A DNA stretch of 42,054 bases, taken from positions 1-42,054 of IMG/VR virus record IMGVR_UViG_2609459819_000001; one strand, given 5' to 3'. This stretch comes from a virus. Lineage: Duplodnaviria > Heunggongvirae > Uroviricota > Caudoviricetes. The translations under genes and the position numbers were made by a program. Of the stretch, positions 4,761-34,549 are shown piece after piece (position 1 is the stretch's first letter; the number at the start of each line of letters is the position of its first letter). Under the pieces are notes generated by a model, which did not search any database, was not told the DNA's origin, and was given only the letters and a program-made list of their open reading frames with translations.

Positions 4761-5639
4761 TCGGCAGTCGTATGTTGCATACTGACGCGGCGCATTCATG
4801 CTGGCTTGCAGCCACTGGGCATTGAGAATAGCTTTTCCGTTGCGCTTGATGTACTCAAGCCCAACCCAGCGGCCGGGTTGATTAGTGGCAGCCATCCACT
4901 CCATCTTGATGTTATCCGGTTCCCCTTTGGTGCTACCACCAGAGCCGATTGGGCTAATTTTTTGCGTCTCTGGTTTTGCGCCATTAATTCTGGCCCAACC
5001 ATCAGCAGAAGACAGATCAATCGTATAAGGACCACAGACTGTTTTGTAATTCACGCCAAGCTTTTCGTTACTGTGAACATTACTACTTTTCTCGTAATCA
5101 GCCTTGGCTACGTCGTTCATTTTTTGATAGATGGCAGGTTGCTTCAGCGATAACTCATTTAGCTGTTTTACAAAATTTTCTCGTGAAACCTCTGCAAGCC
5201 CCATGGGTTTTCTATCAATGATATAATCATCATAAATCTTTAATACAACAGCCGAAGAAGAAAGTTTCTTAGCTAAATCATTTACAAAATTGAGATAATT
5301 TAGCTGAGAATTATCTCTTACATCGATAGCCCTAACTCCACCTGTGCCGTACTCATGATATGCAGCATAAAAAGCTGGTATATTCTCCGGCTTTTTATTG
5401 ATTGCCTTAATCAACCCGTCAGGACCACAGATCTCGCCACTCCAGTCAATTAGTGACTTCCCTTTAGATTTCCATGTCTGACAATCATCTGTCGATAAAA
5501 TTACTATCGGCTGCCATCCTGGACGTCTTTTGTACTCAGCGTTCTGCGCGGAATTAAAGCCTGCACTCGCGCCCCCGGATAAGAGCAACCCGGAAAGAAA
5601 AAGTGCGCTATATCGAATTCCGTTCTTATTTGTACCCAC
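4749..5639 (-). CDS. Secreted protein of unknown function (Sec-type signal peptide); cargo gene inside the baseplate cluster
   Basis: 296-aa ORF; GTG start 1 nt after hub stop with AGGAGG 7 nt upstream; N-terminus has basic n-region, hydrophobic LFLSGLLLSGGASAGF and ASA/AQNA cleavage-like motif; AT-rich. Confidence 0.5.
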   Translation of the reverse strand: MGTNKNGIRYSALFLSGLLLSGGASAGFNSAQNAEYKRRPGWQPIVILSTDDCQTWKSKGKSLIDWSGEICGPDGLIKAINKKPENIPAFYAAYHEYGTGGVRAIDVRDNSQLNYLNFVNDLAKKLSSSAVVLKIYDDYIIDRKPMGLAEVSRENFVKQLNELSLKQPAIYQKMNDVAKADYEKSSNVHSNEKLGVNYKTVCGPYTIDLSSADGWARINGAKPETQKISPIGSGGSTKGEPDNIKMEWMAATNQPGRWVGLEYIKRNGKAILNAQWLQASMNAPRQYATYDCRKVK

Positions 5640-6707
5640 TTAATTTCCTCCTGAGCGAGCTATAGTCGACTGGCTAATCAGGTCACGAGCCCCACGCGCA
5701 AAACACATCAAATCCATGTACCACGCCTGACCTCTGGTGTCGCCAGTATAGTCGATAGCTTTGACGATATAAACGCCATCCGTCGCAATGCTGGCAGCCT
5801 GTGACGTCGTGCCGGTCAGCACACGGTTGCCGTTCTCTTCTGTTTCGGTGATACGCCCGGGCGACTGTGCGATTTCGCTATTGCCGAGCGCGGCGCGGTA
5901 CACCGAAGCCTGATCGAGCTGGATAAGACCATTAATACGGATGTTTGGGTTTATCAGGCACCGCACGTTTACTCCGCCGCCCATCGTTTGTTGCGGCATA
6001 CCGATCAGGCCAGTATCGGCATTCAACACAATGGCTTCGTGAATATATTTATCCTCCGGCACCATCTGGACCTGACCATCCACCAGCTGCCATGTCGCTT
6101 TGCACTGCGCAGCAATATTATCCATCACGTTACGGGTGGATGAATAAATCGCACGGCCACGAGGAAACACGGTATCAGGAAAGTCACCGGTAATGCCCTG
6201 CGTCACGCCGAACGCGTTGAAATCCTGCATAGTCGCCCGGTGCAGGTCCGCAACGGTATAACCAGCGGCAAGCGTGGTGATGGTAGTCGCGTAGAGGAAC
6301 GCTTCGTGGTTACTGATGGCCTGAATCAGCACCCAGGAATCGGTGATGTTGTCCTTCCCGGTGACGGTGAAGCGAATATCACCGTCAAATATCAGGCCGT
6401 AGTTCTGACCGTTCACCTGCCCTACCTGGTCTGGTGAAATCTCCCGGGCGACACCAACCTGGCTCGCATCAACATCCGGCGCAATACCGTCATACCCGGC
6501 AATGATGCGAATTTTTGCAAACTCCTGCCCCAGTATCTTGTTCGTGGTATCGGTCGAAAGGTTGTAAATTTTCACGTTCGCCACTCGCGGCCAGCGTGTA
6601 TCTGCCCACTCGATCTGGAACGTGACCTTAAAATCAGACAGGGAAACGCCCTGCCCGTTCTGGTCCAACAGTTGCAGCTCAAAATGGCGCATCCAGTTAA
6701 GAGACAT
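5640..6707 (-). CDS. Baseplate hub protein (Mu gp44 / P2 gpD-like position)
   Basis: 355-aa ORF two genes downstream of tape measure. Confidence 0.45.
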   Translation of the reverse strand: MSLNWMRHFELQLLDQNGQGVSLSDFKVTFQIEWADTRWPRVANVKIYNLSTDTTNKILGQEFAKIRIIAGYDGIAPDVDASQVGVAREISPDQVGQVNGQNYGLIFDGDIRFTVTGKDNITDSWVLIQAISNHEAFLYATTITTLAAGYTVADLHRATMQDFNAFGVTQGITGDFPDTVFPRGRAIYSSTRNVMDNIAAQCKATWQLVDGQVQMVPEDKYIHEAIVLNADTGLIGMPQQTMGGGVNVRCLINPNIRINGLIQLDQASVYRAALGNSEIAQSPGRITETEENGNRVLTGTTSQAASIATDGVYIVKAIDYTGDTRGQAWYMDLMCFARGARDLISQSTIARSGGN

Positions 6708-24883: not shown

Positions 24884-25666
24884 TTACCGCGTTATCTGCT
24901 TAAGCTGTTTTTCGGCCCAGGACTCTTCGATATCAAATTTCGTGATCAGCAGGTCGTAGAATGGCTTAACAGACTTTTTCCAGGTGTCCAGGCTAATGGC
25001 GTCAGTAATCTGGCATACAGCAGCATAGGCTTCAGTCGACGGAAGTCGTTCATACCCACGCCCTCCGCAGCGCTTACAGTCAGCCAGAACAGGAACGCCC
25101 TGTTTCTCAGTAAGAGCCTGGTTCACTGCCTTGCCGCGCCCATGGCAATCACTGCAAGAAGCACTAACCACACCAGAGCCATTACACTTTTTGCATAGCA
25201 CTTTGATGGATTCTTTGACCTTCACCATCCCGGACACGGTCATTTTCCCTTCTGGCTTACGGAATTTATTGGTAAACACGTCAGCCTCAATGAAGCCCTG
25301 ACCGTCACAACAATCGCACTGCTTCACGCTGGCAGCGCTGCGGGAATAGTCCTCAAAAGCGAAGGTGGCCAACTGGTGCATCACCTGAGGTTTAACCGCG
25401 GCACCGAGCTTACGCAGTGCGGCAACCTTGTCGCATTTTGTCATCGCGTACTCAGCCAGCAGACCGATCGCCCGATCCCGGTCGTTATTGCTTATGCCCA
25501 TCTTGCCGAGGAAGGCGCTGTAACCCATTGCGGCGCGTTCCTGCGTCATGCCCATGGCAGCCATTATGTCGGTACCGGTCAGTGAATCGGAGGCGGTAGC
25601 GCGCGGAGAATCGCTAATCAGTGTGGATTTAGCGAAGTGGTATTTCACTGTGTTTTCAAGGTTCAT
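24884..25666 (-). CDS. Q: Late-gene antiterminator Q (lambda Q family)
   Basis: N-terminal SDSPRATASDSLTGTDIMAAMGM and C-terminal TWKKSVKPFYDLL closely resemble lambda Q as recalled; multiple CxxC zinc motifs. Confidence 0.85.
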   Translation of the reverse strand: MNLENTVKYHFAKSTLISDSPRATASDSLTGTDIMAAMGMTQERAAMGYSAFLGKMGISNNDRDRAIGLLAEYAMTKCDKVAALRKLGAAVKPQVMHQLATFAFEDYSRSAASVKQCDCCDGQGFIEADVFTNKFRKPEGKMTVSGMVKVKESIKVLCKKCNGSGVVSASCSDCHGRGKAVNQALTEKQGVPVLADCKRCGGRGYERLPSTEAYAAVCQITDAISLDTWKKSVKPFYDLLITKFDIEESWAEKQLKQITR

Positions 25667-25803
25667 AGCGCTTCTCCAGCATAAGTTTTCACGTAATTCT
25701 TCAGTATCCGGTAGTCCGTTAGCACAGAGCCGGGAAAGTGGTATAAGCGAAGCCGCTGCCAGCGAACGCGGAGGTGATCGGAAAAACAGGATTCAAATGT
25801 CAT
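25663..25803 (-). CDS. ylcG: YlcG-like small protein (46 aa)
   Basis: Manually translated [46 protein letters not shown]; ATGA overlaps with rusA stop and Q start. Confidence 0.5.
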
Positions 25804-26162
25804 ACGGCCTCCAGCCCGGTGATTGTCAGTTCCAGCTTTCCACCTTTGGTAACGGGCATCTTCACAACGCGATAATCAACGACCTGAGCATCGTCCAGCC
25901 AGAAACCTGCTTTGGTGAGTGCGTCAAAAGCGGCCTTTTGCAGATTATCCAGGTCACGGCGACGGCGATCCGGCATGTGGCACTCAATGCGGATTTTCAC
26001 AGGCATAGCCAGACCGATATCCAGCATTGCGTTTTTAATGATTCGGGCGACGTTATCGCGGTATGCCTGCCCTTCTGCGCTGATGTGCGTGCGCCCGCGA
26101 TTATGGCGGTAGTAGCGGTTATTGCTCGGCGGCCAGGGCAATGTGATGTTGTAAGTATTCAC
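25800..26162 (-). CDS. rusA: Holliday junction resolvase RusA
   Basis: [37 protein letters not shown]... nearly identical to E. coli RusA as recalled; 120 aa from GTG at 26162 overlapping ybcO stop. Confidence 0.85.
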
Positions 26163-26449
26163 GCCTTGATTACCCCCTCTTTCAGCCAGATAACCTGCGT
26201 TCTCGCCATACCTTCCAGCGCGCATTCTTTAGCATACTCAGCATCGACAAAATGTGTACGGCGGTCGATCTCGTCGTGACAGGCAGAGCATGCAATGGTG
26301 GCAATCAGATCAGGCGGTTTGATTCCGGTGCCACATAACCCGGCCAGGCGAATGTGCGCCAGTACAGACGTTTCCGGGTTACCGTTGCAGACGCCGGGAA
26401 TTCGAACCTGACAATCACGACCACGAGCCTCTTTGCGTAAATTTGCCAT
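26159..26449 (-). CDS. ybcO: YbcO-like protein (DUF1364, putative nuclease)
   Basis: 96 aa from internal ATG ([42 protein letters not shown]...); DLP12-like gene order ybcN-ybcO-rusA-ylcG. Confidence 0.65.
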
Positions 26450-26451
26450 GC

Positions 26452-26658
26452 TCACCCCCACGCCTTGCTTTGCCATACCCGGCTCGGGCGAGGCGCGTTG
26501 TCGCCTTCCGGCAATTGCACGCTGACGGTCCAGGTGATGTTGTCGCGATTCAGGCTGCGCTCTGTCTTTACACCGCGCGCCCGGTATTTCTCCACCAGCT
26601 CGTCGGCCTGTTCGGTGGTGCATTCGTGATGGTGGAACCAGGAAAATTTCATCGCCAT
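26452..26658 (-). CDS. Hypothetical small protein (NinE position)
   Basis: 68-aa ORF packed between ybcN and ybcO with overlapping stop/start. Confidence 0.3.
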   Translation of the reverse strand: MAMKFSWFHHHECTTEQADELVEKYRARGVKTERSLNRDNITWTVSVQLPEGDNAPRPSRVWQSKAWG

Positions 26659-27257
26659 CACCCCGCAAAGCTCATCAGCTGGGCGGCGGCGTTTTCTGCC
26701 TCTTCACAACTGCGAAATGATCGGGAGAGTATCCATCGCCACAGAACATCGAGCGCGGCTTTGTACAGCTGCTGGAACTCGGTTTCGTCCATGTTAGCGA
26801 AGGCAATACTGCGGGGATGTTTGCGAAGTGTTCCGTCAGGAAGCTGAATAGCGTCATAGTGACCAGACTCGACGATCACCCAGGCGCGATAAGCATCATA
26901 GGATTTGCAGATGCTGATGCTACCGGCGCGCTTATCGGCGATGCGGTCCAGATATTGCTCGGCAGCATCCAGCAGTGCGCCTTCGTTTCCACCAAATGCC
27001 GCGAGGAATTTAGCATAACCACTTACGAGCTTACGCTCATTGCTGGATATCGCCCCTCCAGTAGGTTCCCAGTATTCAAACCCGAGATTCAGGAGCGCAA
27101 AAAAACGGCGATGGAATGCGGGATTCCTCACCTGGCGAAATTCGGCTACCAGCACGGCGCCGAGTTTGATTTTTGATTGCAGAATATCGCTGGTCTCCGG
27201 CGTCGCGGGGATCAGGATTCCTGATGACTGCTTGATGAGTTGTAGTTCGTGCGCCAT
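26658..27257 (-). CDS. ybcN: YbcN-like protein (DUF1367)
   Basis: MAHELQLIKQSSGILIPATPETSDIL... recalled as DLP12 YbcN-like; position upstream of ybcO/rusA. Confidence 0.6.
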   Translation of the reverse strand: MAHELQLIKQSSGILIPATPETSDILQSKIKLGAVLVAEFRQVRNPAFHRRFFALLNLGFEYWEPTGGAISSNERKLVSGYAKFLAAFGGNEGALLDAAEQYLDRIADKRAGSISICKSYDAYRAWVIVESGHYDAIQLPDGTLRKHPRSIAFANMDETEFQQLYKAALDVLWRWILSRSFRSCEEAENAAAQLMSFAG

Positions 27258-27291: not shown

Positions 27292-27540
27292 TCAGACCGT
27301 TGATTTCATATTATCAGAAGGTGGGGTTACCCGGTAGCCGAGACGGTGAATAAACTGCATAAAACCATTAGGAGTAAAGACCTCTTCATCATCCAGCAAA
27401 GGCCGCATAGAAACCATGCCATTGACGCGATAAATTAGATGCCTGCCCGATGAAGGAAAGCTAAACACCACGCAGCCGTCAGACCTTCTTACAATGTCAT
27501 ACCAGTTGTCATCTGACGTTTGCAAAGCTGAATCACTCAC
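27292..27540 (-). CDS. Hypothetical 82-aa protein, likely co-transcribed with the dinI-like gene
   Basis: GTG start with AGGGAG upstream; no terminator seen between it and dinI-like gene. Confidence 0.3.
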   Translation of the reverse strand: MSDSALQTSDDNWYDIVRRSDGCVVFSFPSSGRHLIYRVNGMVSMRPLLDDEEVFTPNGFMQFIHRLGYRVTPPSDNMKSTV

Positions 27541-27657
27541 ATTTATGTTCTCCCTTCGAGCGACTAACAGACGCGATTAAAGATTGTCGGCAGCAGCATC
27601 AGAGGGTTACGCAAATTGCGGTATTCTGATAAATGCGCGCCAGCCTTAAGCGCAATT

Positions 27658-27891
27658 CTAATAAAACCAGTCGTCAGCGCTTTCCCAGGTTTCCTGGAGG
27701 ATGGATTCGATTTTCTTTTTATCGTCCTTGTCTCCACCGAAAACACTTAACCCATCGGACCCGGCACGGCGGATTGTGAGCCTGCAATTGTCATAGTGAT
27801 CATTCAGGCGCTTAAGCAATTCTTTCTCCAGTGCTGGTACCGCGCCTTTAGGAAGTTCTTTCATGCGATCAATGGTTAATTCAACTTTCAT
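27658..27891 (-). CDS. dinI: DinI-family protein
   Basis: C-terminus KKIESILQETWESADDWFY matches DinI signature; start at second ATG with GGAGG 5 nt upstream; LexA box directly upstream. Confidence 0.75.
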   Translation of the reverse strand: MKVELTIDRMKELPKGAVPALEKELLKRLNDHYDNCRLTIRRAGSDGLSVFGGDKDDKKKIESILQETWESADDWFY

Positions 27892-27909
27892 AATGGCCTC
27901 CATTGCATG

Positions 27910-27929
27910 TACTGTGTTTTTATACAGTA
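27910..27929. promoter_or_regulatory. LexA (SOS) box TACTGTGTTTTTATACAGTA
   Basis: Perfect CTGT-N8-ACAG with flanking TA/TA, 19 nt upstream of dinI-like start codon, overlapping a TATACT -10-like hexamer. Confidence 0.7.
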
Positions 27930-27990
27930 TACCTATGCACGGAAATGATCAACGTTTTAAGAGCACAAATTGTTAATTTTCTGTCAGTAG

Positions 27991-28018
27991 AAAAAAAAAA
28001 AAACCCGCCGTAGCGGGT
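27991..28018 (-). terminator. Strong intrinsic terminator (minus strand)
   Basis: ACCCGC-tacg-GCGGGT stem followed by a 12-13 nt T run on the minus strand. Confidence 0.6.
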
Positions 28019-28222
28019 TGAATTAGCAATGTTTTATTAAGCCGCTATTTGTTTCTGCTGACAAAGCTCTGGCAAATTTGCACGCACCAGTGCTTCAGCA
28101 AACATCGCTGGCTCCGCCGTGAAATCGCGGGATTCTGTTTTGTATCTGCTAATTATGAACCAGCAGAAACTTTACTAAGATATGAAAATTAGCCTGCTTA
28201 AACAGCCTTTATGAAAGGTTAG

Positions 28223-32806: not shown

Positions 32807-33040
32807 TTATGCCCTCGCTTCCTGAGCCGGTAATCCATCCGTAGGGTTGAGGTACAAATCAGGGCGTAACTCATGTGGAGTTACACCTGTAGCATTGAAA
32901 ATAGGAATGACACGGTTAGCCGGTACGAATCCATTGTCACGGTGACGCCAGTGACTGACCGTCATTGGGGATACATTGAGCTTTTCTGCTAAACGGGTTG
33001 CACCCCCTACGATGCATATTGCTTTATCAAGTGCTTTCAT
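32807..33040 (-). CDS. cro: Cro-like HTH regulator (YdaS/Cro family)
   Basis: 77 aa from internal ATG 33040 (MKALDKAICIVGGATRLAEKLNVSPMTVSHW...); GGAG 6 nt upstream; divergent from the repressor gene. Confidence 0.55.
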   Translation of the reverse strand: MKALDKAICIVGGATRLAEKLNVSPMTVSHWRHRDNGFVPANRVIPIFNATGVTPHELRPDLYLNPTDGLPAQEARA

Positions 33041-33067
33041 ATTTGGCTCCAAGTAATAACGAACCAA

Positions 33068-33096
33068 ATTAAACATTATGTTTATGTTCAAGTCAA
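33068..33096 (-). promoter_or_regulatory. pR-like promoter (TTGACT-17 nt-TTTAAT)
   Basis: -35 at 33096..33091, -10 at 33073..33068 on minus strand; operator palindrome in the spacer. Confidence 0.5.
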
Positions 33097-33111
33097 CATT
33101 ATGAATGTTGA
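33070..33111. promoter_or_regulatory. OR-like operators: palindromes TAAACATTATGTTTA (33070-33084) and TCAACATTATGAATGTTGA (33093-33111)
   Basis: Two perfect palindromes sharing AACATTATG in the 103-bp cro/repressor intergenic region, overlapping the pR -10/-35. Confidence 0.5.
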
Positions 33112-33135
33112 GGCGATAAACTTTTAGTTTAGAAT
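33108..33135 (+). promoter_or_regulatory. pRM-like promoter for the repressor (TTGAGG-16 nt-TAGAAT), near-leaderless transcript
   Basis: -10 ends 8 nt before the repressor ATG (33144); no SD present. Confidence 0.35.
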
Positions 33136-33143
33136 CTTGATAT

Positions 33144-33539
33144 ATGAGAAAAAACACACACCAAACAGATAACCCGCAGGTTCGGCGGTTAAATGAAATC
33201 ATCGAGAAGAAGCGCATATCCAAAGCGGATATAGCGAGAATCTGTGGTGTGAGCGCACAATCAGTCAACAACTGGTTTGTCAGAGGAGCGATAGGAAAAA
33301 GCTCAGCAATAAAACTTGCCGATGCGCTAGGCGTAAGTCTTGAGTGGGTTCTAGGTCAGGACGTGGATGCTAAGAACGGTTTGAGACACGACGAACGGAG
33401 ACTGTTGGAACTCTATAATCAACTCCCAAACGAAGAAGAACAACAGAACATGTTGCGGATCGTATCTCTACGGTTGAAAGAACTCGATGAACTGTACGCC
33501 AAGTACATGGGACGGCGGATTAAGGGCGATGCCGAGTAA
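33144..33539 (+). CDS. Phage repressor, HTH XRE family (cI-like but without peptidase S24 domain)
   Basis: 131-aa ORF divergent from cro; HTH-like region ISKADIARICGVSAQSVNNW; no Ala-Gly / Ser-Lys autocleavage region visible. Confidence 0.6.
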   Translation: MRKNTHQTDNPQVRRLNEIIEKKRISKADIARICGVSAQSVNNWFVRGAIGKSSAIKLADALGVSLEWVLGQDVDAKNGLRHDERRLLELYNQLPNEEEQQNMLRIVSLRLKELDELYAKYMGRRIKGDAE

Positions 33540-33843: not shown

Positions 33844-34098
33844 GTGGGAAGAAAGGAAAAGCTAAAGTCAAAGTTAGACGGCTTACCCAAAAATTTTACT
33901 TGGGATGAGTTCGTTACTCTCATGAACCAGTATGGCTTCAAGCTTTTGAATGCTAAACGAGGTTCTGGTCGTAAATTTTACAACCAACGTGTTGATAGAT
34001 TGGTCATTTTTCATGAGCCTCATCCTGAAAACACCCTCAAAAGGTACGTCTTGGAAGAAGTTAAACAGCTGTTAGATGAGATTGATGATCATGAATAA
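33844..34098 (+). CDS. hicA: HicA-family toxin (YcfA-like mRNA interferase)
   Basis: 84-aa ORF with GF..L...KRGSGRKF...FHEPHP pattern resembling HicA; directly upstream of a HicB-like gene; GTG start. Confidence 0.5.
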   Translation: MGRKEKLKSKLDGLPKNFTWDEFVTLMNQYGFKLLNAKRGSGRKFYNQRVDRLVIFHEPHPENTLKRYVLEEVKQLLDEIDDHE

Positions 34099-34102
34099 CT
34101 TG

Positions 34103-34549
34103 ATGAAATACAAAGGTTACTATGGTAGCTCCAGCATTTCATTTGAAGATGGGGTGATGCATGGAAAACTCGAATGTATAAATGATCTCGTCACTTATGA
34201 GGGTGCAACGGTTGCAGAACTCCGTGCAGCCTTTGAGGAGGCCGTGGACGATTACCTCTCCACTTGTGAAGAGATAGGAAAATCTCCAGATAAGACAATG
34301 AGTGGTTCGTTTAACATCCGGATAGGTGAATCCCTGCATAAAAAAGCATATTTAGCTGCTAAAGCTAAGAATATGACTTTAAACGATTATGTAAAACAGG
34401 CTGTCAGTGAGTCAGTTAATGGGAAAAAAGAGGTTCACTACCACTTTGAAAAACCGAGGGATGTTAGAGAAGTTACTTTCTTCTCATCCCGTAGACGTAC
34501 AGAAGAGACCTATTGGGAAGTTTCAGTAGACAACGGAGTGCCACATTGA
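34103..34549 (+). CDS. hicB: HicB-family antitoxin (HicB fold + C-terminal RHH-like region)
   Basis: MKYKGYYGSSSISFEDGVMHGKLECINDLVTYEGATVAELRAAFEEAVDDYLSTCEEIGKSP...FNIRIGESLHKKA matches the HicB pattern. Confidence 0.65.
   Translation: MKYKGYYGSSSISFEDGVMHGKLECINDLVTYEGATVAELRAAFEEAVDDYLSTCEEIGKSPDKTMSGSFNIRIGESLHKKAYLAAKAKNMTLNDYVKQAVSESVNGKKEVHYHFEKPRDVREVTFFSSRRRTEETYWEVSVDNGVPH

Follow-up and report, generated by a model that had tools for sequence, protein, structure and literature searches.

The locus studied here raises the question of how a lambdoid prophage can be induced by DNA damage when its repressor carries no autocleavage domain. The window, by which we mean the whole stretch of 42,054 nt analysed, is a lambdoid prophage; its minus strand carries the rightward early and late genes. 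A first-pass annotation had noticed in it a LexA box at the promoter of a DinI-family gene, an unknown 82-aa ORF behind that gene and a repressor that seemed non-cleavable, and had suggested that induction may run through the SOS promoter via an antirepressor and/or through direct SOS-driven expression of Q. The immunity region, from which the question arises, has the following features:

33144-33539, plus strand: lysogenic repressor of the GfoR family, 131 aa, with matches to HTH_3 and Phage_CI_repr (PF07022) only
33041-33143, both strands: divergent control region between the repressor and cro genes, with repeats that are candidate operators
32807-33040, minus strand: Cro-like (YdaS-family) gene (PF15943, E = 7.6e-16; phrog_35)

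The Pfam search of the repressor gave no Peptidase_S24 match at E ≤ 0.01, which upholds the initial reading of an HTH protein without an S24 autocleavage domain, and neither an Ala-Gly nor a Cys-Gly dipeptide occurs anywhere in its 131 residues. A sequence search found no relative of the repressor in the PDB. In the 103-nt control region, two near-palindromes of the form TAAAC-N5-GTTTA, TAAACAttaTGTTTA in 33070-33085 and TAAACttttaGTTTA in 33116-33131, are putative operators, and the Cro-like gene opens the rightward early operon, the predicted target of silencing by the repressor. Directly downstream of the repressor lies a HicA toxin/HicB antitoxin pair (33844-34098 and 34076-34549, plus strand), at the place occupied by parA in Gifsy-1. 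Besides HicAB, the leftward operon contains Kil, an excisionase and proteins of no assigned function only, with no N-like antiterminator among them; the earlier statement that such a protein is missing agrees with the PHROGs and Pfam scans, which gave no N-family match among the proteins scanned.

Induction without self-cleavage of the repressor has been described for the Salmonella prophages Gifsy-1, -2 and -3 (Lemire, Figueroa-Bossi & Bossi, 2011; PMC3121763). According to that work, a LexA-repressed operon is situated 1.3 kb downstream of the replication genes, behind a terminator-like palindrome, and encodes, in this order, a dinI homologue, a small protein with a non-canonical start codon and an irsA homologue (PMC3121763). 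The small proteins GftA, GfoA and GfhA are antirepressors, which bind the short repressors GtgR, GfoR and GfhR and strip them from DNA (PMC3121763); the complex expected of the Gifsy type has the form A2B2. A lexA3(Ind-) allele abolishes Gifsy induction, and the repressors stay uncleaved when induction occurs (PMC3121763). Deletions narrowed the interval needed for induction of Gifsy-1 and Gifsy-2 to the small ORF, non-polar deletion of dinI or irsA left induction unaffected, and expression of GfoA from P-BAD at the ara locus led, in the absence of DNA damage, to lysis and high phage titres (PMC3121763).

To relate the proteins of the window to this system, the identities of gfoR and gfoA were anchored by the cloning primers published in PMC3121763, which we located in Salmonella Gifsy-1 DNA. 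A homology search with the window repressor found an S. Typhimurium protein (P0129), and primers le144 and le145 for gfoR match both ends of its gene exactly in three Gifsy-1 loci; because of these exact matches at both gene ends, P0129 is taken to be GfoR. Its loci adjoin rseC and have parA downstream, as expected of the Gifsy-1 site. Over 127 residues, this protein and the window repressor share 74% identity and 91% similarity (E = 3e-73).

The operon that would correspond to the LexA-repressed operon of the Gifsy phages runs leftward on the map of the window, with the repressor gene 5.6 kb away from the predicted antirepressor gene. In the direction of transcription, its elements are:

27991-28019, minus strand: intrinsic terminator, with the stem AACCCGC-uacg-GCGGGTT at 28002-28019 and then T11 at 27991-28001
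27924-27952, minus strand: SOS promoter of the PdinI-gfoA type, read by eye and from conservation
27947-27952, minus strand: -35 hexamer TTGATC
27926-27931, minus strand: -10 hexamer TATACT, with a 15-nt spacer from the -35
27924-27929, minus strand: alternative -10 hexamer TACTGT, with a 17-nt spacer from the -35
27910-27929, both strands: LexA operator (SOS box), TACTGTATAAAAACACAGTA
27658-27891, minus strand: dinI homologue, 77 aa (PF06183, E = 1.7e-26; phrog_189; NF007893)
27541-27657, minus strand: non-coding spacer of 117 nt and conserved length that separates dinI from the antirepressor gene
27292-27540, minus strand: predicted antirepressor gene (putative gfoA orthologue), 82 aa, with a GTG start after GGGAG
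26658-27257, minus strand: DUF1367/YbcN-family gene (PF07105, E = 4.8e-92)
24884-26661, minus strand: rest of the operon to Q, with overlapping stops and starts (PF07102, PF05866, PF03589), made up of the five genes that follow
26452-26661, minus strand: orf69, 69 aa
26159-26449, minus strand: YbcO nuclease
within 25800-26225, minus strand: RusA
25663-25803, minus strand: ORF of YlcG size
24884-25666, minus strand: antiterminator Q

The LexA box overlaps the -10 region whichever of the two -10 hexamers is chosen. A motif search of the 42-kb window found no other CTGT-N8-ACAG than the box at 27910-27929, which is also the sole exact TACTGT-N8-ACAGTA. The shorter motif by itself is common, being found at least once in 28 of 100 shuffles, while the expectation for the 12-base palindromic box is about 0.0025 per window (42054/4^12). 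Compared with the consensus TACTGTATATATATACAGTA, TACTGTATAAAAACACAGTA agrees at 17 of 20 positions and both of its arms are perfect. The first-pass annotation had described a perfect LexA box at a promoter; this stands for the arms and for the overlap with the -10, but not for the AT spacer, in which the box departs from the consensus. The promoter was not called by a consensus promoter scanner, because its hexamers are 15 nt apart. Nevertheless, its parts are well preserved among related phages: the terminator, the -35, the -10 and the LexA box are all kept in mEp237, SEN34 and Gifsy-2, TTGA together with AGGTATACTGT is invariant among the four phages, and similar sequences are present in further loci. 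The functional weight of the -10 is known from the Gifsy-1 homologue in S. Typhimurium D23580, where induction is lost through one SNP in the PdinI-gfoA -10 and Gifsy-1 phage production returns when the SNP is reverted (PMC5322425).

The terminator in front of this promoter has a stem of 7 bp with 5 GC pairs and a hairpin energy of -11.0 kcal/mol (RNAfold), so that it is the strong terminator it had been taken for, and terminators also precede the LexA box in all Gifsy prophages (Lemire et al.; PMC3121763). It is predicted to shield the SOS promoter from upstream (pR-side) transcription. It also stands between the nin-Q block and the genes for replication and accessory functions, and no N-like antiterminator or nut-like site was detected by which the pR transcript might pass through 28002-28019 to reach Q in lytic growth. 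A boxA/nut-like motif beside the SOS promoter, TGCTCTTAA, was discarded because such motifs occur at chance level (2 found vs 1.04 expected).

As to the genes behind the promoter, the PF06183 match places a member of the DinI family directly under the LexA-box promoter, as the first reading had it. It comes first among the operon's genes, and its ATG at 27891 is preceded by GGAGG and gives a protein of 77 aa, the length found in Gifsy-2 and mEp237; an ATG at 27903 was rejected as the start on these grounds. The DUF1367 gene is 87% identical to STM1020 of Gifsy-2 and stands where the Gifsy operon has its irsA homologue. From this gene through Q, stops and starts overlap, and a terminator scan of the minus strand from 28002 to 24787 found no terminator-like site, in keeping with the earlier claim that dinI, the 82-aa ORF, the ybcN-ybcO-rusA-ylcG block and Q follow one another without a terminator.

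In Gifsy-1 loci, the match of the gfoA primer pp866 falls on the start of an ORF of 82 aa that begins with TTG and lies between dinI and DUF1367, while the reverse primer pp867 matches near the end of this ORF with its 3′ 19 of 22 nt, the first 3 nt being mismatched in those Gifsy-1 genomes. With this primer-matched ORF of other Gifsy-1 genomes serving as the GfoA reference in place of the 14028 sequence, the 82-aa protein of the window is identical at 75 of 82 positions (91%, E = 4e-58). Its relation to GftA is much more remote: BLASTP gave no match, a MAFFT alignment gave 25% identity, and profile comparison by hhalign gave a weak likeness (65% probability, E = 5.9e-5). As the BLASTP search against GftA was empty and the profile match weak, the antirepressor assignment is based on GfoA and not on GftA. 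The weak likeness agrees with the published placing of gfoA and gfhA, which were described as "more distantly related to gftA" (PMC3121763). Judged from its sequence, the 82-aa protein is an orthologue of GfoA and thus the predicted antirepressor of this phage.

No other search gave the protein a function. Sequence searches of Pfam, NCBIfam and the PDB found no match, and specifically no ANT, KilAC or ORF6N domain, as in antirepressors of the P22 Ant or KilAC-ORF6N type, was found in Pfam or NCBIfam. Its matches are limited to phrog_340 and phrog_1813, both of which are listed as "unknown function", and in all annotation sources compared the gene is either labelled "hypothetical protein" or not called. 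An AF2 model, with four strands and a helix, was discarded (pLDDT 65; best Foldseek match to the PDB, E = 2.5). Across genera, 15 columns are invariant among 15 sequences of the ORF, suggesting that it is under purifying selection. Its start codon is at a conserved position (27538-27540 in the window) and is GTG or TTG wherever it could be read (L001, L003, L011 and L013-L037); in these cases, the non-ATG start is always preceded by a GGAG/GGGGG site, a pattern suggesting that the inducer has been selected to be translated weakly.

The stretch that separates dinI from this gene is conserved as well. Across genera it measures 105-117 nt (the window, L002, L003 and L013-L027), and between the window and Gifsy-2 it is 82% identical, whereas the flanking dinI genes are 68% and the antirepressor genes 51% identical. 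A structured RNA in the spacer found no support: the RNAalifold covariation term was -0.15 with one compensatory pair only, the z-score from single-sequence folding was -0.57, and no Rfam family was found anywhere in the window.

Given that the anatomy is the same as that of the published module and that the homology of both partners is anchored by primers, we assign the locus to the Gifsy type; very probably, it is best explained as an induction module of that type, in which LexA gates the antirepressor of a lambdoid prophage. In the lysogen, the 131-aa HTH repressor would silence the divergent early promoters, while host LexA bound at 27910-27929 would block the dinI-operon promoter, about 5.6 kb from the immunity region, and the upstream terminator would exclude other transcription from the operon. 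DNA damage would lead to RecA-stimulated cleavage of LexA and thereby open the dinI-operon promoter. The second gene (27292-27540) would then yield the 82-aa antirepressor from its GTG codon, and the antirepressor would bind the repressor stoichiometrically and take it off the operators in 33041-33143, releasing the lytic programme. With the repressor left uncleaved, induction would in principle be reversible. That the promoter responds to LexA, that the antirepressor binds the repressor and that the repressor goes uncleaved in this phage is inferred from the published Gifsy work. The suggestion that induction runs through the LexA promoter and the 82-aa protein against a non-cleavable repressor is thus supported by the 91% and 74% identity to GfoA and GfoR, for which the mechanism is established in Gifsy. 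In principle, a repressor with 74% identity to GfoR could evade the 82-aa antirepressor. In the published work, GfoA inactivates both GfoR and GfhR, the mutual similarity of which is just 66%, and GtgR does not respond to GfoA or GfhA (PMC3121763).

The module is present well outside Salmonella. From the terminator to the antirepressor gene, its DNA is 97% identical in coliphage mEp237 (NC_019704) and 85% identical in Salmonella phage SEN34, and at 95% identity or more it was found in 51 of 5426 complete E. coli genomes, where the annotation always reads "hypothetical protein | DinI family protein". A comparative scan, with one genome taken per species, gave 26 loci in other Enterobacteriaceae, spanning Citrobacter, Enterobacter, Raoultella, Kluyvera, Leclercia, Atlantibacter, Silvania and other genera. 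Upstream of the antirepressor gene, all 26 and all seven reference loci have a CTGT-N8-ACAG box, at about -380 nt where dinI intervenes. Nine loci have a module without dinI (among them L029-L033 and L036-L038, from Kluyvera, Silvania, Leclercia, Pseudescherichia and Mangrovibacter). In eight of the nine the box is found at -134 to -197 nt, L037 being the exception with -348 nt. As the box is retained where dinI is missing, it travels with the antirepressor gene and not with dinI.

A GfoR-family gene on the opposite strand lies within 10 kb of the antirepressor gene in 18 of the 26 loci. Four of the remaining eight have the P gene at the extreme edge of the 10-kb flank, with the immunity region beyond it; of the other four, one is on a short contig, two are without upstream O, P and cro-type early genes, and one carries a RecT-like gene where the repressor would be expected. 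These eight loci have no bearing on the question of repressor-antirepressor pairing. In mEp237 (L001, 3147-3539 and 3559-4026, minus strand) and SEN34 (L003, 490-891 and 919-1302, minus strand), two tandem GfoR-family paralogues adjoin cro. The identity of these paralogues to the window repressor is 60-72%, and a near-invariant C-terminal segment, SLRLKELD-x2-Y-x-KYM, is common to them; the window and Gifsy-1 have only one such gene each. Another arrangement was seen in L012 (Salmonella enterica GCA_001955265.1, Gifsy-1 site), where gfoR (10001-10396) occurs with gftA (5420-5641) and not with gfoA, both genes having been identified by exact primer matches. If GftA does not act on GfoR, the L012 prophage would need an antirepressor supplied in trans by another prophage.

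Among the alternatives to the Gifsy-type switch, the one that fares best, improbable as it is, holds that the LexA promoter mainly transcribes Q directly, so that late expression is SOS-driven and the 82-aa protein is incidental. It fits an operon in which the minus-strand scan from the promoter to the end of Q turned up no terminator-like site, in which the genes are translationally coupled, and which is cut off from pR transcripts by a strong terminator just upstream of the SOS promoter; the lack of an N-family match among the scanned proteins likewise speaks for it. In Gifsy-1 and Gifsy-2, however, the small ORF alone is needed, and its expression from P-BAD, with no damage and with LexA intact, results in lysis and high titres (PMC3121763). 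As GfoA made from P-BAD gives phage while LexA is intact, Q can be expressed without the LexA promoter being opened. The retention of the LexA box with the antirepressor gene where dinI is absent also argues against this alternative, as do mEp237 and SEN34, which are sequenced phage records and presumably propagate lytically. Direct SOS-driven expression of Q may still be an additional input to induction. This part of the first-pass proposal accords with the anatomy, that is, with the missing terminator and the coupled genes, but such expression is not required in Gifsy-1, where GfoA acts in trans.

A very improbable second alternative is that the operon is an accessory set for modulating the SOS response, in which the phage DinI tunes host RecA filaments without any part in derepression, the prophage being induced in another way or never. 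DinI does belong to a bona fide RecA-filament-binding family, and the 82-aa ORF is nowhere annotated as more than a hypothetical protein. Against this, the non-polar dinI and irsA deletions had no effect on Gifsy induction (PMC3121763), the nine loci without dinI retain both the LexA box and the antirepressor gene, and the 15 invariant columns among 15 sequences point to purifying selection on the 82-aa ORF itself. We give next to no credence to the formal possibility, which nothing in the sequence favours, that RecA-stimulated or other proteolysis acts directly on the short repressor to inactivate it and that the LexA operon is irrelevant to induction, given a repressor with neither an S24 domain nor an Ala-Gly or Cys-Gly dipeptide, and homologous Gifsy repressors that stay uncleaved in a system in which lexA3(Ind-) abolishes induction (PMC3121763).

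The Gifsy-type antirepressor switch may have a further aspect. It is conceivable, although rather unlikely, that the LexA promoter provides, through Q, an SOS-dependent feed-forward to the expression of late genes, while the 105-117 nt spacer and the non-ATG start throttle the dosage of the antirepressor and so set the threshold of induction. Neither the feed-forward through Q nor a post-transcriptional throttle is addressed in the Gifsy literature that was searched.

The closest described relatives of the module are GfoR/GfoA of Gifsy-1 and GfhR/GfhA of Gifsy-3 (S. Typhimurium ATCC14028), with which the window shares the gene families and the order of terminator, LexA-box promoter, dinI, non-ATG ORF and DUF1367. 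As in Gifsy-1, the immunity region of the window is kilobases away and its repressor is an HTH-only protein of about 131 aa. The immunity allele, however, is a different one, with 26% of the repressor residues changed and another cro/YdaT set. The window and Gifsy-1 also differ in the neighbour downstream of the repressor (HicAB vs parA), in the nin region (YbcO and RusA vs NinG), in the family of Q (PF03589 vs PF06323) and in the start codon of the antirepressor gene (GTG vs TTG). Unlike Gifsy-1 with its Salmonella host, the window type of the module is not specific to Salmonella, E. coli and Citrobacter being carriers too. With GtgR/GftA of Gifsy-2, the window has in common the layout of the operon, the position of the LexA box, the terminator and the conserved spacer between dinI and the antirepressor gene, although GftA is only a remote relative of the window antirepressor. 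A tblastn search with the window repressor found no match in the Gifsy-2 stretch used, which begins inside the O gene and excludes the immunity region. In mEp237, the pair gp48-gp49 is followed by the same DUF1367 gene as in the window and gp49 is annotated "hypothetical protein", but its GfoR-family paralogues form a tandem pair (gp38 and gp39) where the window has a single gene.

Outside the Gifsy group, the nearest parallel is Tum of coliphage 186, together with the split tum-dinI arrangement of Fels-2 and PSP3, where likewise a LexA-controlled antirepressor binds a non-cleavable repressor and is associated with a DinI-like sequence. In 186, however, the antirepressor and the DinI-like part are fused in one protein of 146 aa, and in PSP3 the antirepressor comes first and DinI second; in the window, dinI (27658-27891) precedes the antirepressor gene (27292-27540), the two are separate genes, and the 82-aa protein has no DinI match in Pfam. 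Moreover, 186 is a P2-like phage and the window phage is lambdoid. CI of lambda and C2 of P22 respond to the same input, RecA filaments formed after DNA damage, and have in common with the window repressor the CI-type HTH (PF07022), but the window repressor is without the S24 peptidase/dimerisation domain and without a cleavage site. The RecA-sensitive protein is therefore the phage repressor itself in lambda and P22 and would be host LexA in the window system, whose switch would in principle be reversible.

In summary, the mechanism proposed for this prophage is already published, and the window carries a further ordinary copy of the Gifsy switch. Its biological weight is small, because the mechanism was solved in the Salmonella Gifsy phages in 2011 and the spread of the module to prophages of Escherichia, Citrobacter, Klebsiella and Enterobacter was already remarked then (PMC3121763). 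The practical value of the finding lies in annotation: with the antirepressor gene labelled hypothetical or left uncalled, the SOS input of such prophages could be overlooked. Recognition of the module predicts that the prophage is SOS-inducible through LexA and that its induction is possibly reversible. It also predicts that the antirepressor could cross-induce co-resident prophages with repressors of the GfoR or GfhR type.
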